Counted from the first letter of the stretch, positions 4,134 to 62,718 are shown. The stretch is DNA of 64,000 nucleotides from Clostridia bacterium (GCA_017624905.1 JAGAMD010000024.1:13083-77082), one strand, 5' to 3'. Translations and numbers: made by a program. The notes: generated from the letters alone by a model not told the origin.

Positions 4134-4143
4134 TTAAAAAAAC

Positions 4144-4187
4144 AACCTTCGTAAATACTAGTAAAAAAGTATCTACGGAGGTTTTTT
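4144..4187 (+). terminator. Hairpin/terminator overlapping the RBS of the GerA-family gene
   Basis: Arms 4144-4159 (AACCTTCGTAAATACT) and 4168-4183 (AGTATCTACGGAGGTT) followed by a T-run. Confidence 0.55.
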
Positions 4188-5624
4188 ATGTCAAGCGAGA
4201 AAAAAGAAGCTCAACCGTTTTCCTTTGATTTAGACGAAAATGTACGTACAATTGACAATATACTAAACGTCAATGAAAACTTTGATATCATAAAAAGAGA
4301 AATGGTGATAAATGAGAAAAAAGTAGTTATGTACTATATTGACGGCTTTGTTACCTCGGCTATTATGCAAAAGCTTATGATGCATCTAACAACCGTTAAG
4401 GATTTTGGCAACGGCAAGGAAGGGGCAGTTATAGAATTTGCTCAAAAAAGCGTACCAAGTGTCGAGATTGATCCTGTTTTTGACATTGATACGCTTATTA
4501 CAATGGTGCTCTCGGGATGCTCAGCAATTTTAGCTGAGGGCTTTGGAAATGGTGCAATAATAGTAGATGCCCGTTCATATCCTGCGAGAACAACCGAGGA
4601 GCCGGGTAACGACCGAGTAATGCGAGGGGCACGAGATGGATTTGTTGAAACGCTTATTTTCAATACAGCGATGATTAGACGAAGAATAAGAGATCCTAAG
4701 CTAACAGTTAAATACCTTTGCGTTGGAGAAAGCTCAAAAACTGACATTTCAGTGGTGTATTTAAACGGAAAAGCCGACCCTGTGTATGTAAATAGTGTGA
4801 TAAACAAGATTAAAAGCATCAAAACAGATGCACTTCCGATGGGACATCAAAGCCTTATAGAATGTCTTATAAAAAAACATTCGTTTAATCCTTTTCCAAG
4901 AGTTAGATGTACGGAGCGACCGGATTGTGCTTGTGCATCGATTTTAGAGGGTAGTGTAATTGTACTTTGCGATACCTCACCGGAAGCAATAATTTTGCCA
5001 ACCTCGATTTTTGACTTTTTACAAGATACAGACGATTACTATTTTACACCAATAACAGGCACATATTTAAGGCTTGTTCGTCAGTTAGTCTTTTGGAGTG
5101 CTGTCGTTTTAACACCTATATGGTATTATCTTGCAACTAATCCCAATATCGTTCCCGAATGGCTCTATTTTATAGTGCCGGAGGACTCGGGAGCTGTGCC
5201 GATACTTGTTCAACTTTTACTTGTAGAATTTGTAGTTGATGGATTAAAGCTGGCATCGCTTAATACACCAAGCGTTATGTCAAACTCCTTTGGCGTTATC
5301 GGCGGACTTTTACTAGGAGATTTTGCCGTACAGGTCGGTTGGCTAAGCGCTGATGTGATTTTCTATATGGCAATCGTTTCAATGGCAAGCTTCACACAAT
5401 CAAATTATGAGCTTGGATATGCACTGAAATTCGTAAGAATTATAACTCTGATTTTAGTTGCCTTGCTTGGTGGCTGGGGACTCCTTATAGGTGCCTTAAT
5501 CGGCATAGCTTTGGTTCTTACAACCAAGACCATAAACGGAAAACGCTCGTACCTGTATCCGTTATTCCCATTTAATCCAACCGCAATGTCTCGCCTTGTT
5601 TTTCGTCGACAAAAGCATAACTAA
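4188..5624 (+). CDS. Spore germination protein, GerA/SpoVAF family
   Basis: RSYPAR..EP..DRVMRGARDGFVETL..NTAMIRRRIRD, ERPD, hydrophobic C-terminal half. Confidence 0.88.
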   Translation: MSSEKKEAQPFSFDLDENVRTIDNILNVNENFDIIKREMVINEKKVVMYYIDGFVTSAIMQKLMMHLTTVKDFGNGKEGAVIEFAQKSVPSVEIDPVFDIDTLITMVLSGCSAILAEGFGNGAIIVDARSYPARTTEEPGNDRVMRGARDGFVETLIFNTAMIRRRIRDPKLTVKYLCVGESSKTDISVVYLNGKADPVYVNSVINKIKSIKTDALPMGHQSLIECLIKKHSFNPFPRVRCTERPDCACASILEGSVIVLCDTSPEAIILPTSIFDFLQDTDDYYFTPITGTYLRLVRQLVFWSAVVLTPIWYYLATNPNIVPEWLYFIVPEDSGAVPILVQLLLVEFVVDGLKLASLNTPSVMSNSFGVIGGLLLGDFAVQVGWLSADVIFYMAIVSMASFTQSNYELGYALKFVRIITLILVALLGGWGLLIGALIGIALVLTTKTINGKRSYLYPLFPFNPTAMSRLVFRRQKHN

Positions 5625-48820: not shown

Positions 48821-51202
48821 ATGACGGAACAAGAAAAAAGTAGATTTTTAAAAGCAAAAAGAGCACTCTTTGATAAATATTATTCGTTCCTAAACGAAAA
48901 GCAAAGAGAGGCAGTATATACAGTAAAAGGCCCTGTTTTGATTTTAGCAGGAGCAGGTAGTGGAAAGACTACGGTTTTAACCAATCGTATAGCACACATC
49001 ATAAAGTATGGCAACGCGTATTTCTCGAACGATGTGCCTGATTTTATGACAGCCGACTCGGTTGAGGATCTTGAAAATGCAATTAATTTAACCAATGAGG
49101 AAATAGAGAAGTATCTAGAACTCTTTTCGAAGGATGCGTGTCCCGCTTGGAACATTTTGGCAATCACATTTACAAATAAAGCAGCCAATGAAATCAAGGC
49201 TCGTTTGGCAAGAATATTAGATGAGGATGCAAGTGATATTTGGTCCGGCACCTTCCACTCTGTTTGTGTGAGAATATTGCGTTCATATGGTACACTCATT
49301 GGCTATCGTCCTGCGTTCGGTATTTGCGACACAGATGACGCAAAAAAGCTTATTTCCAAGTGTATGAAGGACCTAAACATTGACGAAAAGCGTCTTTCCA
49401 TCAAGGCTGTTATGAACGAAATAGGCAGAGCCAAGGATAGGCTACAAGATCCACAGGATTATGCAAGTGAGGTCGGTAATGATGCAAAGTACAAGGATGT
49501 TGCAAGAGTATATGAGCTATACCAAAAGCGACTGATGGATTCAAACCTCTTAGACTTTGATGATATCATTATGAAAACGGTTCAGCTGTTCCGTGAAAAC
49601 AGTGATGTTTTGGCACACTATCAAAACAAATTTAAATATGTTTTGGTCGACGAGTATCAGGATACAAATAAGGCACAATTTGTACTTGTATCACTTCTTG
49701 GAGATTTTTATAAAAATGTAATGGTAGTGGGCGACGACGACCAGAGTATTTATAAATTCCGTGGTGCAACAATTGAAAATATTCTTAATTTTGACGCAAA
49801 ATATTTAGATGCAACTGTGGTTAAGCTAGAGCAAAACTATCGTTCAACCTCAAATATTCTAAATGCGGCAAACTGTGTAATTTCCAACAATCCTCATAAG
49901 CATCAAAAGGAGCTTTGGTGTCAAAACGAAGAGGGCGACAAGATACTTGTTAAAGAGACCTATACACAAAACGATGAATCGAGATTTATCATAGATAAAA
50001 TCATAGAGCTTAGAAATGATAGAAATCTTGAATATAAGGACTTTGCAATTCTGTATCGTATGAATGCACAGTCAATGAACCTTGAAACAATGTTTGCCAA
50101 GAGCGGTATTCCGTATCGTATGCTCGGAGCACTACGCTTCTATGACCGTAAAGAGGTCAAGGATATGATTGCGTACCTATCTATAATCAACAACCCAAGT
50201 GATAATGTCCGTTTGCGTAGAATAGTCAATGAGCCAAAGCGTAAAATTGGAGATGCATCATTCGATACAGCATCGAAAATAGCAGAGGAGCTTGGCGTTC
50301 CAACACTTGAAATTTTGGAAAAGGCGACGGATTATTTAGCAATTCCTAAAATTGCAGCCAACGCAATGGTTGCATTTGCAAAAACCATAAATTCACTGCG
50401 TGAGGATGCGGAATTCATTCCACTTTCCGGTCTTGTCCGTGAGGTTATGAAGCGTACAGGCTATGAGGCATCGATTGTAGCACTCGGTCAAGCAGAGGCG
50501 GAGAGACTTGAAAACCTTGATGCTCTTTGCGTTGCTATTAAGGAATATGAGGAAAGAGACGAGGATCCAAGCCTGTCGGGATTTTTAGAGGAGGTTACTC
50601 TTGTATCCGACGTTGACCGTTATGATGAAAATGCTGATGCTGTAACTCTTATGACAATCCATAGTGCAAAGGGACTTGAGTTCCCTGTGGTATTCTTGCC
50701 GGGTATGGAGGAGGGCGTTTTCCCGGGTCAGCAATCAATGGCTATGCCATCAGAGATTGAAGAGGAAAGACGTCTTGCATATGTAGCCATTACAAGAGCA
50801 AAAAAGACATTAATCATCACTCACGCAAGAGAAAGAATGCTATATGGTATGACACAGCGTAATCCTCTTTCCAGATTTGTAAGAGAAATTGACGAGGAGT
50901 ACCTCGACATAAAGAAGGAAAGACAGCTTTCATATAGTGGCTTTGAAACTACCTCAAGACCTAAGCCACAAAATATAATGGGACTTTTTACAGCCAACAA
51001 TCAAGCTACTAAAAAGCCGGAAAGAAAGCTCGAAGAGGTATATTCAGTTGGAGACAGAATAAAGCATATGACTTTTGGTGAGGGAACTGTGTTGAATGTT
51101 ACCCCAATGAGCTCAGACTTTATGTATGAAATCGCATTTGATAATGTCGGAACTAAAAAATTATTGGCAACATATGTTGCAAAGCTAATGAAGAAAATTT
51201 AA
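48821..51202 (+). CDS. pcrA: ATP-dependent DNA helicase PcrA/UvrD
   Basis: AGAGSGKT, TFTNKAA, VDEYQDTN, VGDDDQSIY.FRGA, TIHSAKGLEF, EEERRLAYVAITRA. Confidence 0.95.
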   Translation: MTEQEKSRFLKAKRALFDKYYSFLNEKQREAVYTVKGPVLILAGAGSGKTTVLTNRIAHIIKYGNAYFSNDVPDFMTADSVEDLENAINLTNEEIEKYLELFSKDACPAWNILAITFTNKAANEIKARLARILDEDASDIWSGTFHSVCVRILRSYGTLIGYRPAFGICDTDDAKKLISKCMKDLNIDEKRLSIKAVMNEIGRAKDRLQDPQDYASEVGNDAKYKDVARVYELYQKRLMDSNLLDFDDIIMKTVQLFRENSDVLAHYQNKFKYVLVDEYQDTNKAQFVLVSLLGDFYKNVMVVGDDDQSIYKFRGATIENILNFDAKYLDATVVKLEQNYRSTSNILNAANCVISNNPHKHQKELWCQNEEGDKILVKETYTQNDESRFIIDKIIELRNDRNLEYKDFAILYRMNAQSMNLETMFAKSGIPYRMLGALRFYDRKEVKDMIAYLSIINNPSDNVRLRRIVNEPKRKIGDASFDTASKIAEELGVPTLEILEKATDYLAIPKIAANAMVAFAKTINSLREDAEFIPLSGLVREVMKRTGYEASIVALGQAEAERLENLDALCVAIKEYEERDEDPSLSGFLEEVTLVSDVDRYDENADAVTLMTIHSAKGLEFPVVFLPGMEEGVFPGQQSMAMPSEIEEERRLAYVAITRAKKTLIITHARERMLYGMTQRNPLSRFVREIDEEYLDIKKERQLSYSGFETTSRPKPQNIMGLFTANNQATKKPERKLEEVYSVGDRIKHMTFGEGTVLNVTPMSSDFMYEIAFDNVGTKKLLATYVAKLMKKI

Positions 51203-51212
51203 GGAGCTAAAA

Positions 51213-52928
51213 ATGAACATTCCAAGACCTGAGCATCCCAATCCACAATTTGAAAGAGAAAATTGGCAAAATCTAAACGGAGAATGGAAATTTGAATTTG
51301 ATTTTGGTGTAAGTGGTAGAGACAGAAGATTCTATGAAAGAGATAGCTTAAATTCAAAAATTATCGTTCCATTCTGCCCTGAAAGTGTGCTTTCCGGTAT
51401 AGGAAATACCGACTTTTTAAACTGTGTTTGGTATCTAAAAAAGGTAAATATCGAGGACAACGATAAAAACGTAATTCTTCACTTTGGTGCAGTCGATTAC
51501 GAAAGCTACATTTACATAAATCATAAAGAGGTATATCACAATGTTGGTGGATATGTAGGCTTTGATATTGATATTACTGAAGCTGTAAAGCGTGGAGAAG
51601 AAAATATAATTACTGTTTGTGCAATAGATACTCATCCAAAGGGAAAGGCCTCAGGAAAGCAGTCTAAAAATTACTATTCGGGTGGATGTGATTATACAAG
51701 AACAACAGGTATTTGGCAAACTGTATGGCTTGAATATGTTGAAAAAAGCTATATCAAGAGCGTAAAATACTATACAAGTCCGGAGCAAAAGAATGTACAA
51801 ATCGAGGTTGAAGTAGTAGGAAATGCAACATTTACCGCTAAAGCAACATATGAGGGCAAGTTGGAGGGCGAGATTTCCGTTCCGCTTTACGAGGGCATCT
51901 CTCGTGTAACCTTACCACTTGAAGAGCTTTATCTTTGGGAGGTAGGCAAGGGCAGACTTTATGACCTTGAATTGACATATGGAAACGATAAGGTAAAGAG
52001 CTATTTTGGTATTAGAAGCACTCGATTTGACTCTAAACATTACCTATTAAACAATAAGCCGGTATATCTTCGCACAGTTTTGGATCAAGGCTTCTACAAG
52101 AAGGGTATTTATACAGCTGAAACCGAGAAAGAGCTAGTAAAGGATATTTATCTTTCACTTGATGCAGGCTTTAACGGAGCAAGACTACACCAAAAGGTGT
52201 TCGAGCCAAGATTTTTATACCATTGCGATAAGCTCGGCTATATGGTATTTGGTGAAACAGGCAACTGGGGAATAGACTGCTCAAATATGGAACATTTAGC
52301 ACCATTCTTACTTGAATGGCAAAGAGAAATTAATCGTGATTTCAACCACCCGTCAATTATAGGTTGGTGTCCTCTAAATGAAACATGGGACTTTGATTAT
52401 AGACATCAAAATGACGATTTTATAAGAACAATGTACTACGCAACAAAAGCAATGGATTCAACTCGTCCTTGCGTTGGCACAAGTGGTAATTATCAGGTAG
52501 TTTCTGATGTCTATGACCTCCACGACTATCTGCAAAGCAAGGAAGAGTTTGAAAAGATTTACCTTGCAAAAACATATCAAGAGCTTGCAGAAAACTACGA
52601 TAAAATGCATGAGTGGGTATCAAAATATCAAAATAGTAAGGATTATGAAAATTTTGCACTTTACCTCAGTGAATATGGTGGTATTCGTTGGGATACAGAC
52701 GGCGTTGGTGGCTGGGGCTACGGCGATGGGCCAAAAACAGAGAAAGAATTCCTTGAAAGATATGAGTACCTCACAAAAGCTCTCATTGATTCCCCTTATG
52801 TGTGCGGCTTCTGCTATACACAGCTCTATGACGTAGAGCAAGAGGTAAACGGCCTCTATACCTACGAAAGACAACCAAAATTCGACATGGCAAAAATCAA
52901 AGAAATCACCCAATACGGCGACAAATAA
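51213..52928 (+). CDS. Glycoside hydrolase family 2 (beta-galactosidase/glucuronidase-like)
   Basis: PRPEHPNPQ, LNGEW, HFGAVDY, TGIWQTVWLE, NHPSII.W..NE, SEYGG, YTQLYDVEQEVNG. Confidence 0.9.
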   Translation: MNIPRPEHPNPQFERENWQNLNGEWKFEFDFGVSGRDRRFYERDSLNSKIIVPFCPESVLSGIGNTDFLNCVWYLKKVNIEDNDKNVILHFGAVDYESYIYINHKEVYHNVGGYVGFDIDITEAVKRGEENIITVCAIDTHPKGKASGKQSKNYYSGGCDYTRTTGIWQTVWLEYVEKSYIKSVKYYTSPEQKNVQIEVEVVGNATFTAKATYEGKLEGEISVPLYEGISRVTLPLEELYLWEVGKGRLYDLELTYGNDKVKSYFGIRSTRFDSKHYLLNNKPVYLRTVLDQGFYKKGIYTAETEKELVKDIYLSLDAGFNGARLHQKVFEPRFLYHCDKLGYMVFGETGNWGIDCSNMEHLAPFLLEWQREINRDFNHPSIIGWCPLNETWDFDYRHQNDDFIRTMYYATKAMDSTRPCVGTSGNYQVVSDVYDLHDYLQSKEEFEKIYLAKTYQELAENYDKMHEWVSKYQNSKDYENFALYLSEYGGIRWDTDGVGGWGYGDGPKTEKEFLERYEYLTKALIDSPYVCGFCYTQLYDVEQEVNGLYTYERQPKFDMAKIKEITQYGDK

Positions 52929-52968
52929 TAAGAAAAAGCATTTCCCCGAGAGGAAATGCTTTTCTTTT
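52900..52968 (+). repeat. 69-bp direct repeat, left copy (GH2 3' end plus terminator)
   Basis: 68/69 identical to 59033-59101. Confidence 0.95.
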
Positions 52969-53019
52969 AGCAAAAAACAATTTAATTTGATCATTTTTTT
53001 GAAAATGAGTAAATTGAAG

Positions 53020-53048
53020 TTGACATTGAGTAATTGTAGTGTTATAAT
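53020..53048 (+). promoter_or_regulatory. Consensus sigmaA promoter of the fic-hsdM operon, overlapped by TGAGTAA repeats
   Basis: TTGACA-N17-TATAAT. Confidence 0.8.
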
Positions 53049-53084
53049 ATAAAATAGATAAAAGTATTAAAAAGCGAGGGTTAT

Positions 53085-54143
53085 ATGCGTAATTACGATT
53101 ACAAAGATAAATGGAAAAGATTACTTACTCCAGAAATTGTTGCGCTCATTACTAAAATACACGAATTTAAAGGCGAACAAAACAGTTTTCTCGGTGCAAA
53201 AAAAGACACTTTAACTCATCTTGTAAAAATTGCTAAAATACAAAGCACAGAAAGCTCAAATAAAATTGAAGGTATTTATACATCAAGTGAAAGACTTACT
53301 AAAATTCTTAAAGATAAAACACGCCCGGCAAATAGAAGTGAGCAAGAAATTGCAGGTTATCGTGATGTTCTTTCGCTGATTCACGAAAACCATGATTTTA
53401 TTCAACCAAAGTCCAATATGATCTTGCAGCTTCACAAAATGCTTTATAAGTATGGTGGAAATGAAGGCGGCGAATATAAATTCAATGATAATGTAATAAG
53501 TGAAGAGGATAGCGAAGGAAACAAGAGAATCAGATTTACGCCTGTTCCGGCATGGGAAACTCCGGATGCAATGGAAAAGTTATGCCGTGCGTTAGATGAA
53601 GCGATGGCTGATCCAGAAGCTGATGAGTTAATAATAATTCCAATGTTTATTCTTGATTATTTATGTATTCACCCATTTGGTGATGGCAACGGAAGAATGA
53701 GCCGTTTGTTAACGCTTTTACTTTTATACAGAACTGGATATATTGTAGGAAAATACATTAGTATAGAAAAAGCTATTGAACAAACAAAAACAACATATTA
53801 CGAAGCACTTGAAGACAGCTCTTACGGATGGCACGAAAATCAAAATGATTACAGCCATTTTGTAAGATATATGCTCGGTATCATCCTTGGTGCATATAGA
53901 GAATTCAAAGAAAGAGTGCAGCTTGTGATTGAAGCCCAGACTTCAAAACCCGACCGCATAAGGAATCTTATAAAAAACAGTTTTGGAAAGATAACAAAAA
54001 CAGAAATTATCGATCAATGTCCGGATATTAGTCAAGCTACTATACAGCGTGCATTAAATGATTTGTATAAAAAAGGCGATATTTTAAAAATTAGTGGTGG
54101 TCGATATACCGCATATGTTTGGAACCACGATAAGGAGAGTTAA
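53085..54143 (+). CDS. Fic-family protein with C-terminal HTH (class II, autoinhibited)
   Basis: HPFGDGNGRMSR catalytic motif, SNKIEG inhibitory motif, C-terminal wHTH (ISQATIQRALNDL). Confidence 0.92.
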   Translation: MRNYDYKDKWKRLLTPEIVALITKIHEFKGEQNSFLGAKKDTLTHLVKIAKIQSTESSNKIEGIYTSSERLTKILKDKTRPANRSEQEIAGYRDVLSLIHENHDFIQPKSNMILQLHKMLYKYGGNEGGEYKFNDNVISEEDSEGNKRIRFTPVPAWETPDAMEKLCRALDEAMADPEADELIIIPMFILDYLCIHPFGDGNGRMSRLLTLLLLYRTGYIVGKYISIEKAIEQTKTTYYEALEDSSYGWHENQNDYSHFVRYMLGIILGAYREFKERVQLVIEAQTSKPDRIRNLIKNSFGKITKTEIIDQCPDISQATIQRALNDLYKKGDILKISGGRYTAYVWNHDKES

Positions 54144-54145
54144 AA

Positions 54146-55645
54146 ATGATTACAGGCGAACTTAAAAATAGAATTGACGGACTTTGGGACGTGTTTGCAG
54201 CAGGAGGACTTGTAAATCCACTTGATGTAATTGAACAGATAACATACCTTATGTTCATAAAAGATCTTGATGATACAGACAATCTTCGTGCAAAAGAGGC
54301 GGTTATGCTTGGCTTGCCTCATAAAAGCATTTTTGCTGATAAAGTAAAGGTTGGAGATAGAGAAATAGATGGCAATCAACTAAAATGGTCCGTGTTTCAC
54401 GATTTTCCAGCAGGTAAAATGTATTCAACTATGCAAGAGTGGGTGTTCCCGTTTATCAAAAATTTACACGACGATAAAGATAGTGCATATTCAAAGTATA
54501 TGGATGATGCAATCTTTAAAATCCCAACACCATTACTTCTTGATAAAATAGTCACAATTCTTGATGATATTTATGCCCAAATGGCACAAATAAAGGATAG
54601 CGATATCCGTGGAGATGTGTATGAATATCTTCTTTCTAAAATAGCGCAATCCGGCTTAAATGGTCAGTTCCGTACCCCACGTCATATTATCCGTATGATG
54701 GTGGAATTAATGGATCCAAAAGCAGATGAGGTAATTTGCGACCCTGCTTGTGGTACATCGGGCTTTTTAGTTGCTGCAGGCGACTACTTAAAAGAGAAGC
54801 GCAAAGAAGAAATTTTCTTTAATAGACAAAAGAAAGCTCACTATATGAACGGAATGTTCCACGGCTACGATATGGACAGAACCATGCTCCGCATCGGTGC
54901 TATGAATATGATGACTCACGGTGTAGATAATCCATATATTGAATATCGTGACAGCTTGTCCGATCAAAACCCGGATAAGGACAAATATTCACTCATCTTG
55001 GCAAACCCACCATTTAAGGGTAGCCTTGATTATGATACAGTTTCAGCGGATCTTTTAAAAGTTTGCAAAACCAAAAAGACAGAGCTACTGTTTTTAGCGC
55101 TTATGCTTCGTATGCTTCGCGTAGGTGGTAGATGCGCTGTTATCGTTCCTGATGGCGTTTTGTTTGGCTCTTCAACAGCACATAAGGCTATCAGAAAAGC
55201 GATAGTTGAAAACAATCGCTTGGAAGCAGTTATATCTATGCCATCTGGTGTATTTAAGCCATACGCAGGCGTTTCTACTGCAATCCTTATCTTCACAAAG
55301 ACAGGACACGGTGGTACCGATAAGGTTTGGTTCTACGATATGCAAGCTGACGGATTCAGTCTTGATGATAAGCGCACTGAAACCAAAGAAAATGATATCC
55401 CTGACATCATTGCACGCTTCCACAATCTCGAAGCTGAAAATGATAGAGAACGCACCGAAAAATCATTCTTTGTACCAAAGGATGAAATTGTAGGAAATGA
55501 ATACGACCTTTCAATAAATAAGTACAAAAAGACAGAATATAAACCGGTAGAATATGCACCAACAAGTGAAATCCTTGCTGAAATTAACGCACTTGAAGAA
55601 CAAATTCAAAATGGCATAAAAGAACTTGAGGAGCTACTTAAATAA
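54146..55645 (+). CDS. hsdM: Type I restriction-modification methyltransferase subunit
   Basis: GQFRTPRHI, DPACGTSGFL, ANPPF, VIVPDGVLFG. Confidence 0.95.
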   Translation: MITGELKNRIDGLWDVFAAGGLVNPLDVIEQITYLMFIKDLDDTDNLRAKEAVMLGLPHKSIFADKVKVGDREIDGNQLKWSVFHDFPAGKMYSTMQEWVFPFIKNLHDDKDSAYSKYMDDAIFKIPTPLLLDKIVTILDDIYAQMAQIKDSDIRGDVYEYLLSKIAQSGLNGQFRTPRHIIRMMVELMDPKADEVICDPACGTSGFLVAAGDYLKEKRKEEIFFNRQKKAHYMNGMFHGYDMDRTMLRIGAMNMMTHGVDNPYIEYRDSLSDQNPDKDKYSLILANPPFKGSLDYDTVSADLLKVCKTKKTELLFLALMLRMLRVGGRCAVIVPDGVLFGSSTAHKAIRKAIVENNRLEAVISMPSGVFKPYAGVSTAILIFTKTGHGGTDKVWFYDMQADGFSLDDKRTETKENDIPDIIARFHNLEAENDRERTEKSFFVPKDEIVGNEYDLSINKYKKTEYKPVEYAPTSEILAEINALEEQIQNGIKELEELLK

Positions 55646-56118
55646 TGGACAAGCTTTTTGAGTGTCGAGAGATGTTTTTACAAGCACAAGGATTTTCAAA
55701 ATGCGCAGAATTAGTGCGTAATGAGGGAATTGAATGTTCAACTTCTGTAATAGTAAATTATGCATTTGCTTGCGAGGTATATTTAAAATCTTTGTTATGT
55801 TTTTATGATATTTCATTTAAGAAAAAACACAAATTGAGAGATATGTATGATTTGCTATCTAAAAAAGCAAAAGAGTACATAAAACTGTATGCTTTTGATG
55901 AATACGGCAGTTGGGATACTTGTTATTTAGAGAATATTTCAAATGCATTTGTTGATTGGCGATATAGCTATGAAACAGTTGGAATAAAAAGAGCATCAAT
56001 GCAAATTAAAACAGGATTTTTAATAGCGTTAAATAACGCACTTAGAGAGTTGTGCACAAACGAGTTTTTTGGAATAAGTTATGACAAATTCAGGAGAATA
56101 AATTTTGAGCAAAAATAA
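55645..56118 (+). CDS. HEPN-like domain protein
   Basis: NYAFACEVYLK...H.L..MY..L...ISNAF..WRYSYE; start overlaps the hsdM stop. Confidence 0.6.
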   Translation: MDKLFECREMFLQAQGFSKCAELVRNEGIECSTSVIVNYAFACEVYLKSLLCFYDISFKKKHKLRDMYDLLSKKAKEYIKLYAFDEYGSWDTCYLENISNAFVDWRYSYETVGIKRASMQIKTGFLIALNNALRELCTNEFFGISYDKFRRINFEQK

Positions 56119-56641
56119 TAAAAACAAAAATAAACAACAGAATAATAATTCACAAAAAATTGTAGTCCAAGAATTTGACTATGATAAATTGGCTGAGGCG
56201 ATAATTAAAGCACAGAAAAAAGTAGAAATTGTACCACAAGAAGATGACGATGAAGAAACATTTGTAGAAAAAGCAGTAACTGGGAAAATACAACAAGGCA
56301 AGTTGTTTCCACAAAGTTTATCTAAATTGATGCAGGCATTTTTCTACGTATTAGCAGTGGCAATAGCTCTATCTATGCTGTTGGTAATAGCACTAATAGT
56401 AATAGGTATTATCAACACAGGGTGGAGTGATATAGAAGTCGTTTTTACGAACATTTACCTAATAGCTATAGCAGTTTTATCTGTTCCCATCGTTAGTGTT
56501 GCAGTTGTAATAATGTTTAAAATAGCTAAAGAACTAGGGGCTGAAAAGGATAAAAACTATATTATTTCTTCTTTTTCTAGCGTTGTAAGTTTTGTAGCTT
56601 TGATAGTTGCATTAATAGCACTTTTTAAGGGGGTAGGATGA
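56105..56641 (+). CDS. Hypothetical membrane protein (about 3 TM)
   Basis: Three hydrophobic stretches; overlaps both neighbouring ORFs. Confidence 0.7.
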   Translation: MSKNNKNKNKQQNNNSQKIVVQEFDYDKLAEAIIKAQKKVEIVPQEDDDEETFVEKAVTGKIQQGKLFPQSLSKLMQAFFYVLAVAIALSMLLVIALIVIGIINTGWSDIEVVFTNIYLIAIAVLSVPIVSVAVVIMFKIAKELGAEKDKNYIISSFSSVVSFVALIVALIALFKGVG

Positions 56642-57777
56642 TGGCGAAATTAGGTGATTTGGGAAGAATAATAACAGGAAACACACCAAAAACATCTGAG
56701 GTGTTGAATTATTCATCAAATGATATTTGCTTTGTTAAGCCAAGTGATATATTAGATGGTGAAATAACAAAATTAACAAAAACTGAGTTTTATATTTCTG
56801 AGTATGCGCGTCCAAAAGCTCGCATATTACCACCTAAAAGTGTTTTAGTTACTTGCATTGGAATCATAGGCAAAGTAGCGATTAATGATGTGGAATGTGC
56901 CTTTAATCAGCAAATTAATGCTATTATTCCGGATTTCAGAAAATGCCTAACGGAATATTTAGGATATGCAATTCAAAACAAACAAAAAGAAATGCAAGAT
57001 ATTGCTAATGCCCCAGTTGTTCCAATATTAAACAAAACTCAATTTTTAGAGATTGAAGTTTCTTTGCCCTCAATTGAAGAACAAGTTGAAATTGTTGAAA
57101 AAATAAATGCAACTGATAAATTAACTTCTTTACGCAAAGAACAGCTTGCAAAAATGGATGAGCTTGTAAAATCCCGATTTATCGAGATGTTTGGAGATGT
57201 TAAAGATGAAGAAAAAGTAACCTTGTCAGATATATGCTTGATTATTACTGACGGAACTCATCAACCTCCCAAATTTACAACCACTGGCATACCGTTCCTA
57301 TTCGTTTCTAACATTGTGGGGAATACAATAACCTATGATGCGGAAAAATTCATATCCCAAGAAACTTATGACGAACTAATAAAGCGCACACCAATAGAAA
57401 TTGGAGATGTGTTGTTATCGACGGTAGGATCATATGGTCATCCGGCAGTAGTAAAAAGCGATAAACCATTCTGCTTCCAAAGACATATAGCATATTTGAA
57501 GCCGAACAAGGAGCTGATTGATAGCGAATATCTACACGGAGCGATACTTTCCGTAGATGTACAGAAGCAGATTGAAGAACGAGTAAAAGGAATTGCTCAA
57601 AAAACCTTGAACTTGTCTGAAATAAGAAAAATCAAGCTGCCGTTACCAAGAATTGACGAACAAAAGCAATTTGCCGCCTTCGTCGAACAAGTCGACAAAT
57701 CGAAATTTGAAATTCAAAAGAGCCTTGAGAAACTCGAAACACTAAAAAAATCATTAATGCAAAAATACTTTGGATGA
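56638..57777 (+). CDS. hsdS: Type I restriction-modification specificity subunit
   Basis: Two TRDs (TGNTP.., DGTH.PP), LPSIEEQ and LPRIDEQ conserved regions, LVKSRFIEMFG, SLMQKYFG. Confidence 0.93.
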   Translation: MMAKLGDLGRIITGNTPKTSEVLNYSSNDICFVKPSDILDGEITKLTKTEFYISEYARPKARILPPKSVLVTCIGIIGKVAINDVECAFNQQINAIIPDFRKCLTEYLGYAIQNKQKEMQDIANAPVVPILNKTQFLEIEVSLPSIEEQVEIVEKINATDKLTSLRKEQLAKMDELVKSRFIEMFGDVKDEEKVTLSDICLIITDGTHQPPKFTTTGIPFLFVSNIVGNTITYDAEKFISQETYDELIKRTPIEIGDVLLSTVGSYGHPAVVKSDKPFCFQRHIAYLKPNKELIDSEYLHGAILSVDVQKQIEERVKGIAQKTLNLSEIRKIKLPLPRIDEQKQFAAFVEQVDKSKFEIQKSLEKLETLKKSLMQKYFG

Positions 57778-57790
57778 GGTGTATTGGAAT

Positions 57791-58180
57791 ATGGAACTGA
57801 AAGATTTAGCTCCTTGGATAGCAATAGCAATTACACTTGCGCTTTCTATATTGGTGCCATTGTTTACACAAATAGCAAACAACCGTCATCAACGCAAATT
57901 GCAACAAGAACAATTCGAGAGAGAAGAAAGGCAAAAGAAAGCAAAAGCGTATGAGGCATTTTTGTCTGAGGTTGGAGGAATTATAACAGCTAGAGGTTTT
58001 GTAGATGCCCAATATTTATCTAAAGCGGGTGCTTCTTTATATCAAGTTTATATTTATTCACCAGCAGAGTGGCACGAAGATTTAGATGCATTAACCGAAT
58101 ATATTATGAAAAAAGATTGGGAACAAGCAAGAAAGTTGATTCAGCTATTCAGCCGTTTAATATCAATAGAATTAAAATAG
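57791..58180 (+). CDS. Hypothetical single-TM protein with coiled coil
   Basis: PWIAIAITLALSILVPLF then a Q/E/R-rich helix; ATG 57791 after GAGGTG. Confidence 0.7.
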   Translation: MELKDLAPWIAIAITLALSILVPLFTQIANNRHQRKLQQEQFEREERQKKAKAYEAFLSEVGGIITARGFVDAQYLSKAGASLYQVYIYSPAEWHEDLDALTEYIMKKDWEQARKLIQLFSRLISIELK

Positions 58181-58231
58181 TTTTAATTAAATTTAGAAAA
58201 TGCCAAATTAAGAATGGAAAGGAGAGTAACA

Positions 58232-58885
58232 ATGGATGTTTATGTAATTGGAAATGGATTTGACTTGCAACATTTGTTGCCAACAAAATATATCAATTTC
58301 CTCAATGTGGTTAATTTCTTGATAAGTTATTATGATAAAGAAAATATGAAAACAGTTGGAGATGTTTTTTCTAAATTAGCAAACGGGATCAATCCACTAG
58401 ATGATATGCCCGTTCCGGAAAACGATATAGTAAACAATGTTCGCTTATCTCGATGTTTTTTCTATGTATCTGATATTCTTCGTCAGATAATAGAAAATAA
58501 AGGTATAACTAAAAACAAAAGAAGTTCTAAAATACCATTTTCTATCACCGAAGAACAAATCGCAAGATTTGAATATTCTAAAGAACCAATTTCTCTTAGT
58601 GAAATTTCAAAAAGAATTTTCGCGGTAGCAGAAAATGACAATATGGAAAAAATAACGTATAAACAAATGCTTCAGTGGTTGATTGAAATAGGACTGTTGT
58701 ATGTAAATAGCATAGATGGAGAAAAATCTGAAAAACTACCAACAGAACAAGGAAAGCAAGTAGGAATAGCAATTGAGAATAGAAGAGGACATCGAGGAGA
58801 ATATAAGGTTATTACCTATAATATTGAGGCTCAACGATTCATTGTAGATAACATCGGAGCAATAATAGCTACTATAAACAAATAA
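58232..58885 (+). CDS. Chimeric ORF: AbiH-like N-terminus fused to an unrelated clostridial hypothetical domain
   Basis: VIGNGFDLQHLLPTKY..F (AbiH-like start) followed by KLANGINPLDD..VNNVRLSRCFFYV; ATG 58232 after AAGGAG. Confidence 0.6.
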   Translation: MDVYVIGNGFDLQHLLPTKYINFLNVVNFLISYYDKENMKTVGDVFSKLANGINPLDDMPVPENDIVNNVRLSRCFFYVSDILRQIIENKGITKNKRSSKIPFSITEEQIARFEYSKEPISLSEISKRIFAVAENDNMEKITYKQMLQWLIEIGLLYVNSIDGEKSEKLPTEQGKQVGIAIENRRGHRGEYKVITYNIEAQRFIVDNIGAIIATINK

Positions 58886-58906
58886 AATAATTAACGAGAA
58901 AATAAA

Positions 58907-59000
58907 ATGTCAAAAAGTGTACTTTTTTGATTTTGAAATCGGAGTAGAAGACAAAAAATAAAAGATATAGGTGCAGTAAATAGTAATTCATTCATACGTA
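58907..59000 (+). pseudogene. Frameshifted 5' remnant, possibly of a helicase/exonuclease gene
   Basis: MSKSV/FFDFEIGVEDKK/IKDIGAVNS reconstructed across two homopolymer frameshifts. Confidence 0.3.
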
Positions 59001-59032
59001 TGTGTCACAAAAAGTTAGACAAACAAATAGCC

Positions 59033-59101
59033 AAGAAATCACCCAATACGGCGACAGATAATAAGAAAAAGCATTTCCCCGAGAGGAAATGCTTTTCTTT
59101 T
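59033..59101 (+). repeat. 69-bp direct repeat, right copy (contains bidirectional terminator)
   Basis: One A>G difference from 52900-52968. Confidence 0.95.
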
Positions 59102-59181
59102 GTGCTCGGCACAGCCAAAGCACTAGTCATACAAAACTATTCCACTACTTCTTGTCAAGTAGTTCTTCTGAAAGAAGGCTC

Positions 59182-59385
59182 TTATTTTGTACCCTTAATG
59201 GAATTTTCGTAAGATTCTACCATCTTCTTAACCATTTGACCACCGATAGAACCTGCTTGCTTTGAAGTAAGGTTACCGTTATAGCCGTTTTGGTTAAGAG
59301 TTACGCCAACCTCGCTTGCAGCTTGCATCTTGAATTGGTCAAGAGCAGCCTTAGCTTCTGGCACTGAAATCTTCTTGCTAGCCAT
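59182..59385 (-). CDS. Alpha/beta-type small acid-soluble spore protein
   Basis: VPEAKAALDQFKMQAASEVGV, G.LTSKQAGSIGGQMVKKM. Confidence 0.95.
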   Translation of the reverse strand: MASKKISVPEAKAALDQFKMQAASEVGVTLNQNGYNGNLTSKQAGSIGGQMVKKMVESYENSIKGTK

Positions 59386-59583
59386 AATAAACTCCTATTC
59401 GTTTTATATATATTATCGAGCATAAGCGATTTAATCAAATCGCCCATCTCGACAATTTAATCAAATCTCAAACGCTCTGCTATTATTATGGTGCTTTGAT
59501 ACAAAAATATAATTGGTAATTTAAAGATAATTTAACACAAAATCCTTTATAAAAACTCTTCCTATTATAAATAGAAAAATATT

Positions 59584-59590
59584 TTCGACA
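59584..59590 (-). promoter_or_regulatory. Possible Spo0A box
   Basis: TGTCGAA on the minus strand in the SASP/antiporter intergenic region; a 7-mer can occur by chance. Confidence 0.3.
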
Positions 59591-59606
59591 AAATTCATTT
59601 TTACCC

Positions 59607-59635
59607 TTGACAAAAGGTGATTACCGTATTAAAAT
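59607..59635 (+). promoter_or_regulatory. sigmaA promoter of the antiporter gene
   Basis: TTGACA-N17-TAAAAT. Confidence 0.65.
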
Positions 59636-59686
59636 AGTATGCGTTTTGAAAACTAGAATTTTATCACTATTTTAGAAGGTAGAAAA

Positions 59687-61048
59687 ATGGAAATTATTTT
59701 TACTTTAGCAATTGCATTATTTGCAGGACTTCTTCTATCTAGACTTGCAAAGCTTGTTAATCTTCCTGCTGTTACTGCATACCTGATTGCAGGTGTTCTT
59801 ATTGGCCCATATCTTTTAGGTCAGCTTGGTGTTCACTTCGCCGATGTTTCGTTCCATTTCGGTTTTTCAGAAGCCGATATAACAGGCAACAAGTTTGAGC
59901 TTATTTCAAATGTGGCTCTAGGCTTTATTGCTTTTTCGATCGGTAATGAATTTAGAGTTAGTGATTTAAAGAAATTTGGTAAGCAAGCTACCATAATTGG
60001 TATTCTACAAGCAGTATTTACAACACTCGTTGTTGACGGAGCACTAATTGGCTTACACTTTATTTTAGGTGAAGATGTGTTCCCGCTCAAGTCAGCAATA
60101 ATCCTTGGTGCAATAGCATCAGCAACTGCTCCGGCGGCAACGCTTATGGTTGTTAAACAATACAAAGCACACGGACCTGTTACAAAAACACTTTTGCCGG
60201 TAGTTGCTCTCGATGATGCAGTTGGTCTTATTTTGTTTGCAATTTCATTTGGTGTAGCAAAATCAATAGGAACCGTTGGCGGGAATGTAAATCCTTGGCA
60301 GGTTGTAATATCTGTCGTTGTTGAACCAATTTTAGAGGTTCTTCTTTCAATCCTTCTTGGTGCTCTTATGGGCTTTGTATTCCAATTTATTGAAAGATTT
60401 TTCCATTCACGCTCAAAGCGTCTTGCTGTTTCAGTTGCGTTTGTTCTTATAACAGTTGCGATTTCAATGATTAAGTTCCCAATCGAGTTTACAGATGATG
60501 TTTCACTACATGTTGGCTTCTCATCATTACTTGCTTGTATGATGCTCGGTACAATATTCTGCAACATTTGTGATTTCTCAGCTGAGCTTATGGACCGTCT
60601 TGATCGTTGGACTGCACCAATTTATGTTTTGTTCTTTGTTATAAGCGGAGCAGAGCTAAAGCTGAGCGTATTTGCAAGATGGGAGTTTGTTGTTGTCGGT
60701 CTTGTTTATATCTTGTTCCGTTGCCTAGGCAAATATTTTGGTGCAAGAATCAGCTCTGATATTTCAAAAGCAGATCCAAATGTAAGAAAATTCCTCGGCA
60801 TCACCTTGTTCCCACAAGCAGGTGTAGCACTTGGTATGGCTAACATAGTAACCGAGCATTTTGGTGACTCGGACACAACAGCCGAAATGGTACTAAACAT
60901 CGTTCTGTTCTCAGTTCTTGTTTACGAAATTGTTGGTCCGTTCTTAACAAAGATTTCTCTTGAAAAAGCCGGAGAAATCGATAAAACTAAGAAAACAAGT
61001 AACAGAATTCGCCACCACGACAAAACCGTACCAACTACAAAAATATAA
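59687..61048 (+). CDS. Cation:proton antiporter (CPA/Na+-H+ exchanger family)
   Basis: LPAVTAYLIAGVLIGP, ATAPAAT, VALDDA, FFVISGA, PQAGVALG. Confidence 0.9.
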   Translation: MEIIFTLAIALFAGLLLSRLAKLVNLPAVTAYLIAGVLIGPYLLGQLGVHFADVSFHFGFSEADITGNKFELISNVALGFIAFSIGNEFRVSDLKKFGKQATIIGILQAVFTTLVVDGALIGLHFILGEDVFPLKSAIILGAIASATAPAATLMVVKQYKAHGPVTKTLLPVVALDDAVGLILFAISFGVAKSIGTVGGNVNPWQVVISVVVEPILEVLLSILLGALMGFVFQFIERFFHSRSKRLAVSVAFVLITVAISMIKFPIEFTDDVSLHVGFSSLLACMMLGTIFCNICDFSAELMDRLDRWTAPIYVLFFVISGAELKLSVFARWEFVVVGLVYILFRCLGKYFGARISSDISKADPNVRKFLGITLFPQAGVALGMANIVTEHFGDSDTTAEMVLNIVLFSVLVYEIVGPFLTKISLEKAGEIDKTKKTSNRIRHHDKTVPTTKI

Positions 61049-61049
61049 T

Positions 61050-61082
61050 AAAAAGTCGCCACCAAAAGTGGTGACTTTTTTT
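61050..61082 (+). terminator. Intrinsic terminator
   Basis: AAAAAGTCGCCAC-CAAAA-GTGGTGACTTTTTTT. Confidence 0.8.
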
Positions 61083-61196
61083 AATTTTTGTGCAATAAAA
61101 TTGGAAAGCATTTAATTACTATAACAAAGGAGAATATTGTTTTTTATCACTTTTCGTGGTATAATTAAAACAATTACTAACGAAAGGATGAAAGCT

Positions 61197-61778
61197 ATGC
61201 CGAACAAGAGAGATTCTTTAATAGAAGAGCTTATTTTACAAATCTCAACTGGCGATATGTCTGCTTTAGGTGAGCTATACGAGCTTATAAAAACCGATGT
61301 TTTTGCATACGCTTTGTCGAAAGCCTTTTCAGTACAAGATGCAGAGGATATCACTCATGATACCTTTGTACAAATTTATAAGTATTCCAAAAGATATATA
61401 CAAAAAGGAAAGCCCTTGGCTTGGATTTTTACAATAGAGCTAAACCTTGTGCGCCGTCAATACAATTTAAGCAAAAGAGTAATAGCCTTAGACGAAGAAA
61501 TCAAAACAAAATCAAGCGAAAATGATTTTTCAACACAAATAGTTGATAATCAATTTTTATGTCAAATAATGCGTACATTAAGCAAGGAAGAGCAAGAAAT
61601 TATAACCTTGCATGTTGTATCAGGACTAAAGCATAGAGAAATAGCTAAGCTAATCCAAAAGCCATTGTCTACTGTGCTATCAAAATATAATCGTGCTATT
61701 AAAAAGCTACAATCTAACGCAAAGGAGGAGAAAAATGAACGAGCAGGAAATGAAGAAAAAAATAAAAGAAGCATATGA
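61197..61778 (+). CDS. ECF-type RNA polymerase sigma factor
   Basis: DAEDITHDTF, AWIFTI region 2; LSKEEQEII.L....GLKHREIA region 4; alternative TTG start at 61137. Confidence 0.9.
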   Translation: MPNKRDSLIEELILQISTGDMSALGELYELIKTDVFAYALSKAFSVQDAEDITHDTFVQIYKYSKRYIQKGKPLAWIFTIELNLVRRQYNLSKRVIALDEEIKTKSSENDFSTQIVDNQFLCQIMRTLSKEEQEIITLHVVSGLKHREIAKLIQKPLSTVLSKYNRAIKKLQSNAKEEKNERAGNEEKNKRSI

Positions 61779-62718
61779 GAGCCAAAGCGTTGATTTGCTT
61801 TCTCAAATAGAATCATCATGTCAACAAGAAAAGCAAGCAGATGCATTTGAAAGCTCCAATAGAAGGTACACAATGAGTCGTACTTTAAGAAGCATAATTG
61901 CGTGTACTATTTGTCTAGCTTTGTTTATAACAGGATTCGGTGTTGGCTTTGTTATTCCAAATGCGATGGATAATAACAAGACCACATTTAATGATTCGAT
62001 AGAAACCTTTGTGTATTTAGATGTAAATCCAAGCGTTGAGCTTCAAGTTAATAATGAAAGTAAAATAGTTTCCTGTATTCCTACCAACAATGATGCGGAA
62101 ATAATTCTTAATGGATTAGAGCTTAAGGGAGTCGATATGAATACAGCACTTACTGCAATAATTGGCTCTATGTATGTAAATGGATACCTTTCAACTGATT
62201 CCAATTCCATTCTCGTCAGTGTAAACACTAGCGATGAAGATAATGAAACATCTATTATAGAGAGCATAACAGATAGAATTAACAAGGTGTTTGAGAAAAC
62301 CGATATGGAATGCTCAATAATTACGCAAAGTGTCGAGCTTAACGACGAATTAAAGCAAAGAGCAGAAGAAAATGGAGTATCAGTTGGCAAAATGCACTTT
62401 ATTGATAAAATAATAGAAAACAGAGAAGACTTTGGTGATGATGACCGCCCAGATCTATCTCATATGTCAATAAAGGAGCTTGATAAAATGTTTCCTAAGC
62501 ATCCAAATATGAATGGTGAAAATCCACCACCATTGCCTGAAAATGTCGAAGGCATGGATTCGGAGTTCCCGCCTCCATCTGGTCAAATGTCAGGTGTCAT
62601 CGAGGAGCCACCATTCCTTCCACCAATTGATAAAAAGCCACTAAAAGATGAGCAAGAATCCTTAGAACAATATCCAAAGCAAAAGGATGATAAGAGCTTA
62701 TCAAATATTCAAAACTAA
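61735..62718 (+). CDS. RsgI-like membrane anti-sigma factor with Pro-rich tail
   Basis: One TM, VYLDVNPSVEL..N...NNDAE extracytoplasmic domain, AEENGVSVGKM; ATG 61735 after AAGGAGG. Confidence 0.8.
   Translation: MNEQEMKKKIKEAYESQSVDLLSQIESSCQQEKQADAFESSNRRYTMSRTLRSIIACTICLALFITGFGVGFVIPNAMDNNKTTFNDSIETFVYLDVNPSVELQVNNESKIVSCIPTNNDAEIILNGLELKGVDMNTALTAIIGSMYVNGYLSTDSNSILVSVNTSDEDNETSIIESITDRINKVFEKTDMECSIITQSVELNDELKQRAEENGVSVGKMHFIDKIIENREDFGDDDRPDLSHMSIKELDKMFPKHPNMNGENPPPLPENVEGMDSEFPPPSGQMSGVIEEPPFLPPIDKKPLKDEQESLEQYPKQKDDKSLSNIQN

Follow-up and report, generated by a model that had tools for sequence, protein, structure and literature searches.

A Fic-linked Type I restriction-modification island between copies of a 69-bp terminator-bearing repeat in a Clostridia bacterium genome

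The DNA analyzed herein, called the window, is a stretch of 64,000 nucleotides (nt) from a Clostridia bacterium (GCA_017624905.1 JAGAMD010000024.1:13083-77082), and its subject is an island lying between a GH2-family glycoside hydrolase gene and a gene for a small acid-soluble spore protein (SASP). In this species the ancestral site consisted of GH2, one bidirectional terminator and SASP. A Fic-linked Type I restriction-modification (R-M) island entered that site, and the target stretch of 69 base pairs (bp) is now found at both of its ends; therefore GH2 keeps its end and a terminator, SASP keeps its original terminator, and a dead 29-nt GH2 tail remains. Insertion by host recombination with duplication of the 69-bp target, followed by decay of the island, is in our judgment the best explanation of the locus as a whole, and we hold it with modest confidence.

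The two repeat copies, 52900-52968 and 59033-59101, are identical at 68 of 69 positions and start 6133 nt apart, as described in a first-pass annotation made from the sequence alone. That annotation also placed the last codons and stop of GH2 in each copy, and indeed both carry 29 nt of the gene (2 nt, eight full codons and the stop) followed by the hairpin. The sole mismatch is an A at 52924 on the left and a G at 59057 on the right, which makes the last GH2 codon of the relic AGA, the left copy reading AAA (Lys). In a repeat search the match could be extended to 78 nt at 95% identity, and it is far beyond chance, because the remaining direct repeats in 50000-62000 are all of 34 nt or less, at 86% identity or less. 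The window's own assembly comprises 1.51 Mb in 39 contigs and is 75% complete; within it the 78-mer occurs only at these two places, and the search for further copies of the 69-mer returned none beyond the two. The exact-stem hairpin pattern likewise has two sites in this assembly, both being the repeat copies. Each hairpin is perfectly palindromic, its arms measuring 12-14 nt and its loop reading CCGAGA, and was scored as intrinsic-terminator-like on both strands by a terminator scan, with folds of -16.1 and -17.7 kcal/mol that are far better than those of shuffled sequences (z about -4.5). Among the 24 hairpin copies listed, the loop CCGAGA is found in both window copies and elsewhere only in G003. 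A dispersed repeat was considered and ruled out, with two copies in the own genome and, in the genus, copies kept on the GH2 contig in 17 of the 18 other genomes with the hairpin.

The empty site predicted by the first-pass annotation, with GH2, one hairpin and SASP in succession, was seen in nine relatives (seven genomes of the genus and two metagenome contigs) when the GH2-SASP junction was compared across relatives, a comparison that also returned other cargo. The empty sites were recognized by sequence in G003, G019 and G008 and by coordinates in G012, G020, G045 and G018, and were also found in the metagenome contigs L059 and L056; from GH2 stop to SASP stop they span 59-222 nt. One of them, L059, is also the closest GH2 relative found, with 96% amino acid (aa) identity over residues 479-571. 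In the right copy of the window the GH2 tail abuts the hairpin, and the hairpin abuts a SASP-side flank resembling those of G011 and L059; the right copy is, as this arrangement indicates, itself a fossil of the empty site. The flanks belong to a conserved core, whose order is UvrD/PcrA and GH2 on the left and SASP (minus strand), a Na+/H+ exchanger, a sigma factor and an RsgI-like anti-sigma factor on the right. GH2 orthologues of 77-91% aa identity adjoin UvrD/PcrA in relatives, and SASP shows 79-100% aa identity. A metagenome scan with GH2 yielded six loci, and an undeleted island in a conspecific contig was not obtained among them. In G019, where the GH2-SASP site is empty, a 445-aa open reading frame (ORF) without a Pfam match lies between SASP and the Na+/H+ exchanger gene (L028 9762-11515).

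Between the repeat copies lie 6,064 nt with seven ORFs, an insert of less than 20 kb, and no match to an integrase, recombinase or transposase family was found in any of the seven, in agreement with the first-pass annotation. The cargo is the leading portion of a Fic-linked Type I R-M operon of a kind frequent among gut Clostridia. Species-representative genomes were scanned with HsdM and the 80 closest loci were kept, mostly from gut or rumen Clostridia and with HsdM 76-94% identical. In this set the Fic gene stands directly 5' of HsdM in 51 of the 76 assessable loci, and HsdR (~1,100 aa) follows in 50 of the 52 that reach at least 6 kb downstream. All six fully annotated loci (L080, L083, L084, L088, L105 and L134) have the order Fic-HsdM-(0-2 small genes)-HsdS-(1-5 accessory genes)-HsdR, with AbiH, TIR-AAA and HNH among the accessory genes of annotated loci. 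Gene order, leader, promoter and the positions of accessory genes (between M and S, and after S) are as in the window, whose copy differs in that it stops inside AbiH and is without HsdR. Similarity to 13 other Fic-R-M loci starts at 52968-52984, at the repeat edge, and therefore the inserted DNA begins with the operon's own leader. HsdM is 94% identical to that of L080 over residues 1-499; the 157-aa HEPN-like protein has homologues at the equivalent position in L083, L105 and L107, and the 178-aa protein has homologues between hsdM and hsdS in 7 of the 80 loci. Within the genus no relative of the whole cassette was found, and 12 of 50 genomes (own included) gave partial matches only.

The first-pass annotation regarded everything between the repeats as defense cargo. 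This holds for the R-M genes, and not for the idea of an intact cassette, since what is present is an operon front without HsdR that ends in a chimeric ORF. Of the Type I components, HsdM and an HsdS with two recognition domains are in the island and HsdR is not; neither the TIGR00348 profile nor tblastn with the HsdR of L080 gave a match in the 75%-complete own assembly. The chimeric ORF, which gave a weak AbiH match in the family searches, aligns by its residues 7-52 with the N-terminal 46 residues of a 400-aa AbiH (54%, E 1e-15) and by residues 43-223 with residues 11-191 of a 193-aa G018 protein (61%, E 5e-84). A full-length AbiH domain (about 350-400 aa) was not found, the AbiH-like part amounting to 46 residues only. 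These alignments point to an internal deletion that joined AbiH codon 52 to codon ~21 of a neighboring gene. With it, what remained of AbiH, any additional accessory genes and HsdR would have gone, the loss of HsdR by this route being suggested by its presence in 50 of the 52 related loci. The cell would then retain methylation by HsdM and HsdS without restriction—a decay route by which a Type I system may drop HsdR and keep M and S as an orphan methylase of fixed specificity. The ~190-aa family joined to AbiH has 1,798 relatives and no Pfam family, and in three species its gene adjoins the SASP-proximal hairpin. For the frameless right end of the insert (58886-59032), no homologue was found by tblastx or blastn among all fetched loci or in the own genome; its candidacy as the broken start of a DEDD-type exonuclease gene, proposed on a motif only, was dropped.

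Whole units of this operon family also occur between direct repeats elsewhere. In 5 of the 80 HsdM loci, the entire Fic/HsdM...HsdR unit is bracketed by repeats of 44-149 nt with no integrase inside, and this count is a minimum because many of the loci are cut by contig ends. The coordinates and contents of all these features are collected in Table 1.

Table 1. Features of the window and of the related loci discussed in the text. Numbers without a locus prefix are window positions.
Feature	Coordinates	Strand	Remarks
GH2-family glycoside hydrolase gene, 571 aa	51213..52928	+	left core flank; Pfam Glyco_hydro_2_N/_2/_2_C
Left repeat copy	52900..52968	.	last 8 GH2 codons, stop, bidirectional terminator hairpin; single copy at relatives' empty sites
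Palindromic terminator hairpin, left	52933..52964	.	arms AAAAGCATTTCC / GGAAATGCTTTT, loop CCGAGA; terminator-like on - strand in scan; + strand fold -16.1 kcal/mol, z -4.76
Fic operon leader and promoter	52969..53084	+	left end of inserted DNA; 12/12 sigma-70-like promoter with TG at 53020-53048
Fic-domain protein, 352 aa, SoFic-like	53085..54143	+	C-terminal winged-helix-like region; Pfam Fic 6e-14; PADLOC SoFic 2.9e-39
Type I R-M methyltransferase HsdM, 499 aa	54146..55645	+	full length; PADLOC MTase_I 3.4e-183, residues 1-499
Weak HEPN-like protein, 157 aa	55645..56118	+	accessory between hsdM and hsdS; Pfam HEPN 1.4e-3, below cut-off
178-aa protein	56105..56641	+	accessory; hydrophobic C-terminal half; no family match
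Type I R-M specificity subunit HsdS, 379 aa	56638..57777	+	two target-recognition domains; Pfam Methylase_S x2; PADLOC Specificity_I 5.4e-77 over 3-378
136-aa protein	57770..58180	+	accessory 3' of hsdS; no family match; 50% identical homologue after hsdS in L105
Chimeric ORF, 223 aa	58214..58885	+	AbiH 1-46 fused in frame at ~58370 to ~21-191 of ~190-aa family
Frameless 147-nt stretch	58886..59032	.	right end of inserted DNA, cut off by right repeat; stops in all three + frames
Right repeat copy	59033..59101	.	GH2-end relic (AGA for AAA) and terminator serving SASP; native SASP-side flank adjoins
Palindromic terminator hairpin, right	59066..59097	.	terminator-like on both strands; - strand fold -17.7 kcal/mol, z -4.38
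Alpha/beta-type SASP gene	59182..59385	-	right core flank; Pfam SASP 2.5e-28
~190-aa family member, G002	L034:2289-2855
~190-aa family member, G018	L047:1471-2052	-
~190-aa family member, G044	L069:2024-2587
~190-aa family member, G014	L072:212-778	-
G013 element	L037 (G013:C6) 1543-3237 and 3186-3454; L160 (G013:C18) about 880-1200
Orphan large serine recombinase, 536 aa	L161 (G000:C17:28000-36000) 3633-5243		NCBIfam CcrB/CcrA/XisF best matches, all below cut-off
L083 bracketing repeat			57 nt, perfect; tRNA 3' end
L143 bracketing repeat			44 nt; last guaA codons, stop, terminator arm
L085 bracketing repeat			149 nt; with hairpin
L149 bracketing repeat			64 nt, 84% identical; within 3' part of spoVAC/AEB gene
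L112 bracketing repeat			49 nt; hairpin-bearing stretch
Interval content, G015			one small gene of no known function
Interval content, G011			amino-acid permease
Interval content, G005			649-aa protein of no known function
Interval content, G042, G052			GH39
Interval content, G044, G014			GH39 and ~190-aa family gene
Interval content, G064			UvrD-like helicase with zinc ribbons, permease, amidohydrolase
Interval content, G053			GH39, four small genes, then permease-amidohydrolase
Interval content, G002			GH39, ~190-aa gene, DUF488, DUF488, DuOB, HipA-like gene
Interval content, G056			GH39, helix-turn-helix protein, KAP NTPase
Interval content, G021, G023, G016, G060, G059			polysaccharide clusters, 12-20 kb

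The junctions were compared over 52500-59500 with k=31 contigs from four public runs (X2-X5) of three studies; such contigs break at the repeat and cannot separate a filled from an empty site, because the A/G position lies 44 nt from the right repeat edge. A joint across the 6,133 nt was not listed in any of the runs, which with contigs of this kind counts neither for nor against an empty site or a circle. In X2 and X3, which belong to one study, that of the probable source, the island was present at 100% identity, and the word depth of its own long pieces (~8-10) equals that of the flanks. The junction from hairpin to Fic was bridged in X2, X3 and X4, the contig of X4 (second study) covering 52919-53957 at ~98% identity. 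On the right side, X4 and X5 (third study) each have a contig over 58372-59062 that holds the cargo end and 30 nt of the right repeat, G included, a coverage one letter short of the bridging rule. Both diverge from the window exactly left of 58372, which is the AbiH fusion point, and in both runs Fic and HsdM pieces are present at similar depth. On our reading, only the lineage of the window has the AbiH fusion deletion. X4 also shows a 10-nt insertion after 59004, within the frameless stretch. The suggestion of the first-pass annotation that the event was recent needs care: both junctions are common to strains about 98-99% identical in the three studies, and the insertion is therefore older than the split of strains that are now 1-2% apart.

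Some peculiarities of these runs were also recorded. The contigs of X3 break at 52900, each with one differing letter in the overlap 52900-52929; as a guess, these letters would fit a G at 52924, that is, two identical repeat copies in that sample. Within hsdS, the parts 56946-57413 and 57648-57881 reach a summed word depth of 218-934 in X2 and X3, versus about 10 elsewhere, and joints in the same runs skip 57198-57661. Conserved framework segments of hsdS are common to far more abundant organisms with other recognition domains.

The locus was followed through 50 genomes of the genus, the window's own included; the GH2 3' end was found in 46 of them and the region was fetched in 34 loci. In about 25 genomes GH2 and SASP share a contig, with 59 nt to ~21 kb between them, and conserved core flanks with variable content between them characterize the interval as a hotspot. 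The first-pass annotation had proposed a defense hotspot, of which the difference in cargo between species was confirmed and the restriction to defense was not, as an amino-acid permease, glycoside hydrolases and polysaccharide clusters are found there too. The exact-stem hairpin is present in 19 of the 50 genomes (own included; reversed control, 0). One copy is found at empty or simple sites and two or three where modules sit, with two in G000 (own), G002, G005, G011, G013 and G064 and three in G053. In G011, G064, G053 and G005 the repeated part is 31-40 nt of hairpin, and the loops differ. The permease(-amidohydrolase) module has identities of 84/80/77%, versus 87/82/81% for the flanks; being as diverged as the flanks, it is therefore old and vertically inherited, and the same holds for the hairpin duplicates around it.

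As for the hairpin itself, the loop is found in either orientation, depending on the species (GCAACCGC versus GCGGTTGC, for instance; copies of G019, G053, G002, G064 and G013), and in the left copy of G002 the stem base carries a compensatory A>G / T>C change. Both features would fit a functional palindrome. Stem conservation was not used as evidence of a protein-binding site, given that the search required an exact stem, that 31 of the 50 genomes are without it and that diverged terminators exist (G004, G015 left). In G064, a 1,030-aa UvrD-like helicase with C-terminal topoisomerase-type zinc ribbons directly follows the GH2-proximal hairpin and precedes the permease-amidohydrolase genes (L060 1318-4410).

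A mirror image of the window was found in G002. This genome has a 132-nt direct repeat, 97% identical, at L034:2854-2985 and 8291-8422 (spacing 5,437 nt), composed of the hairpin, a spacer specific to this species, and the 16 final codons and stop of SASP. The layout is full SASP - hairpin / DUF488, DUF488, DuOB and HipA-like cargo / SASP tail - hairpin, which, read from the SASP strand, is that of the window: full gene - hairpin / cargo / gene tail - hairpin. The empty sites that correspond to it are those of G044 and G014. Only the hairpin is common to the two duplications, which differ in extent (69 versus 132 nt) and side, and both copy local species-specific DNA, the loop CCGAGA in the window and the spacer in G002. 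By this comparison, G002 represents a second, independent long duplication of opposite polarity. Its cargo, a different one of the defense kind, is not R-M, and this counts against a mechanism tied to restriction enzymes. In another genome, G013, an element with a 564-aa large serine recombinase splits SASP between ...CATCTTCTT and AACCAT...; the ORF of the recombinase continues in frame into the SASP tail, and the 5' part of the split gene is found on a different contig. The arrangement resembles a sporulation gene interrupted by a gene-intervening element. No remnants of this recombinase were found in G002 or the window, the shared SASP tail alone giving a match.

The G013 enzyme is the only recombinase seen among the annotated ORFs. 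No tyrosine integrase was found in the 131 ORFs annotated at the GH2-SASP locus in relatives (9+41+49) and in related R-M loci (33+24; some overlap). A search of the own genome for an orphan integrase returned three recombinases, all on contigs other than that of the window (C20): one orphan Ccr/XisF-like serine recombinase on C17, adjoined by a 456-aa gene of no known function, a leucine-rich repeat protein and an AraC regulator, and two Xer-like tyrosine recombinases on C27 and C38. By the 78-mer search of the own assembly, no copy of the 69-mer lies near any of the three. Nor was an integron integrase with attI found beside the island, C20 carrying no tyrosine recombinase. The attC sites of integrons are imperfect palindromes of fixed geometry; the hairpins are perfectly palindromic, have T-runs and differ in loop length (5-9 nt). 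These loop lengths count against a fixed core, and a dif/Xer-like or attC-like site accordingly seems less likely.

We propose that the island was inserted by the host recombination machinery rather than by a dedicated integrase. Insertion could have proceeded by a single crossover between the chromosomal 69-mer and circular conspecific DNA carrying the 69-mer, or by homology-facilitated illegitimate recombination, in which homology to GH2 and the terminator would have anchored one end and the other would have been joined illegitimately at a point 29 nt within the GH2 end. At the GH2-SASP locus, the palindromic terminator would be a recurrent breakpoint, and recombination between the two repeat copies could amplify the island or delete it, for which the first-pass annotation suggested excision as a 6,133-bp circle. 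An event of this kind would account for an outer edge that falls arbitrarily within a codon, for a right end without an open frame, for repeats that copy local non-coding DNA and vary in extent, and for the absence of a recombinase. Several points weigh against it. A circle, an empty-site read or a donor was not seen, the contigs of the runs being blind to filled and empty sites, and a 69-bp homology is short for a RecA-type crossover. Tyrosine-integrase islands are classically marked by the reconstitution of a gene 3' end and by repeats such as those at the tRNA and guaA ends of related units; as the island shows deletions, an integrase may have been lost, and in a 75%-complete assembly HsdR or an integrase could sit in unassembled DNA. 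The inner edge of the G002 duplication is, to the nucleotide, the point at which the G013 element splits SASP, which hints at a junction made by a recombinase. Finally, R and M genes are not both in the insert today, as Furuta et al. ask of the class of insertions with which it is compared below.

Much of this counterevidence would suit a decayed site-specific island resembling a cis-mobilizable element (CIME), an alternative that we take seriously and yet find rather unlikely. Its attP would have carried the GH2 end and terminator, the 69-mers would be attL and attR, and the integrase would have been lost or would act in trans; the orphan serine recombinase on C17 may be such a helper, in which case the remnant may still be mobilizable. 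CIMEs often carry defense genes. The architecture is typical, with the full target gene restored and a 3' relic at the far end, and the chimeric ORF shows that deletions took place inside the island. Related Fic-R-M units between repeats of a tRNA 3' end (57 nt) and a guaA end (44 nt), the coincidence of the G002 edge with the serine-recombinase crossover point in SASP and the orphan Ccr/XisF-like enzyme in the own genome also speak for it, and a CIME is by definition an element whose genes for integration and transfer are gone and which has kept attL and attR, in the part of the account that defines the term (PMC5704250). However, neither an integrase nor a remnant of one was found in the island, in the G002 cargo or in the five repeat-bracketed relatives, and among the annotated loci of the genus neither the hairpin nor the GH2 end is used by any element that bears an integrase. 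What the repeats copy is species-specific non-coding DNA (loop, spacer) instead of a conserved core, their extents differ between the window and G002, and no third, attP-like 69-mer lies near the C17 recombinase.

It is improbable, in our estimate, that the palindromic terminator is a true orientation-independent recombination site serving as a cassette platform throughout the genus, with a recombinase in trans or host hairpin processing and no linked integrase. Modules for defense, transport and sugar use would be loaded and lost there, and each loading would add a hairpin copy and sometimes a piece of the neighboring gene. It would follow that, in many gut Clostridia, Fic-linked Type I R-M operons travel this route to gene 3' ends as self-contained passengers.

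Quite improbable, as we judge it, is an old duplication of the terminator followed by swapping of cargo, in which the R-M genes came by double crossover in flanks or hairpins and gene conversion kept the copies alike. Hairpin copies do bound modules in G011, G064, G053, G005 and G013, the permease(-amidohydrolase) module is old and vertical, and flank-mediated transfer has been proposed for core hotspots of Pseudomonas with conserved flanks and no scars of mobile genetic elements, as outlined in part of that report (PMC10250203). In the module-bearing species, however, repetition is confined to the 31-40 nt of hairpin, with loops that differ, whereas the window repeat extends 29 nt into the GH2 end at 68 of 69 identical positions. 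This would need a separate, later duplication of an empty-type site, and gene conversion would not yield the GH2 tail.

An assembly artefact, named by the first-pass annotation as grounds for abandoning its reading, in which an empty chromosomal site and a separate plasmid or circle with the 69-mer were stitched into one contig, is suggested by the origin of the genome as a metagenome bin, by the breaks of k=31 contigs at the repeat and by a repeat size that can confuse assemblers, but it is very improbable, because the A/G difference phases each copy with both flanks at any k above about 45, the junctions from hairpin to Fic (X2, X3 and X4) and from cargo to repeat with G (X4 and X5) recur across the three studies, and the long pieces of the island have the depth of the flanks.

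Insertion by host recombination with target duplication, the explanation preferred here, has precedents among R-M genes. Nobusato and colleagues reportedly described 'insertion with long target duplication' of R-M genes in 2000 (Gene 259:99). As a class it was named by Kobayashi's group (Furuta, Abe & Kobayashi 2010, Nucleic Acids Research 38:2428, PMC2853133), and the parts of that paper dealing with it define it by R-M genes of types I-IV between unique repeats of more than 30 bp, single-copy in the empty genome, with no mobility genes. Its repeats often span a start or stop codon; in a Haemophilus Type I M-S-R case, a 46-bp repeat overlaps 15 bp of a gene 3' end, and an orphan M inserted likewise and gene fusions at such insertions are described as well (PMC2853133). 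On mechanism, these parts of the paper only suggest a role for double-strand breaks made by the R-M system, and amplification through such repeats is cited (PMC2853133). The att-like architecture that the first-pass annotation considered unusual is therefore not new and fits this class as there described. In common with it, the window has an R-M block of less than 20 kb without mobility genes, between repeats that exceed 30 bp (69 bp), are not multi-copy, lie over a flanking stop codon and are single at the empty site (G003, G019, G008 and L059). It differs in its gut clostridial host, outside the taxa covered in those parts of the paper, in the R gene missing today—so that R and M are not both inside the insert—and in a target that is a palindromic bidirectional terminator, reused in G002 on the opposite side with non-R-M cargo. 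With such cargo at the same palindrome, the process is not tied to R-M genes. The island is, with HsdR absent, a further case of the described class, to which it adds a genus-wide series around one palindromic terminator.

This series bears on the question of how defense genes that bring no recombinase with them arrive at fixed chromosomal hotspots. Empty sites, two duplications of opposite polarity, older hairpin-bounded modules and an integrase-bearing element in a neighboring gene form a natural series in one genus, through which the way that insertion with long target duplication comes about can be tested in gut Clostridia with respect to recA dependence, the role of the palindrome and the formation of circles.

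Two other known systems resemble the locus in part. CIMEs, as characterized in the relevant part of their description (PMC5704250), are likewise integrase-free and bounded by direct repeats in which the target gene's 3' end is included; repeats of the att kind are present in the window. The window differs in that no related integrative and conjugative or integrative and mobilizable element, or integrase, from which it could descend was found at the site in the 50 genomes searched, in that there are no remnants of integration or transfer modules, and in that its repeats are species-specific and vary in extent between cases. With the core defense hotspots cDHS1/2 of Pseudomonas aeruginosa, to the extent that they are described in the portion of the report drawn on here (PMC10250203), the GH2-SASP locus shares fixed core flanks and defense genes among a cargo that here ranges from nothing to ~21 kb. 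It differs from them in that its cargo is as often metabolic (GH39, permease and polysaccharide clusters) as defensive, in that its modules are separated by one locus-specific hairpin and in that it holds two long target duplications.

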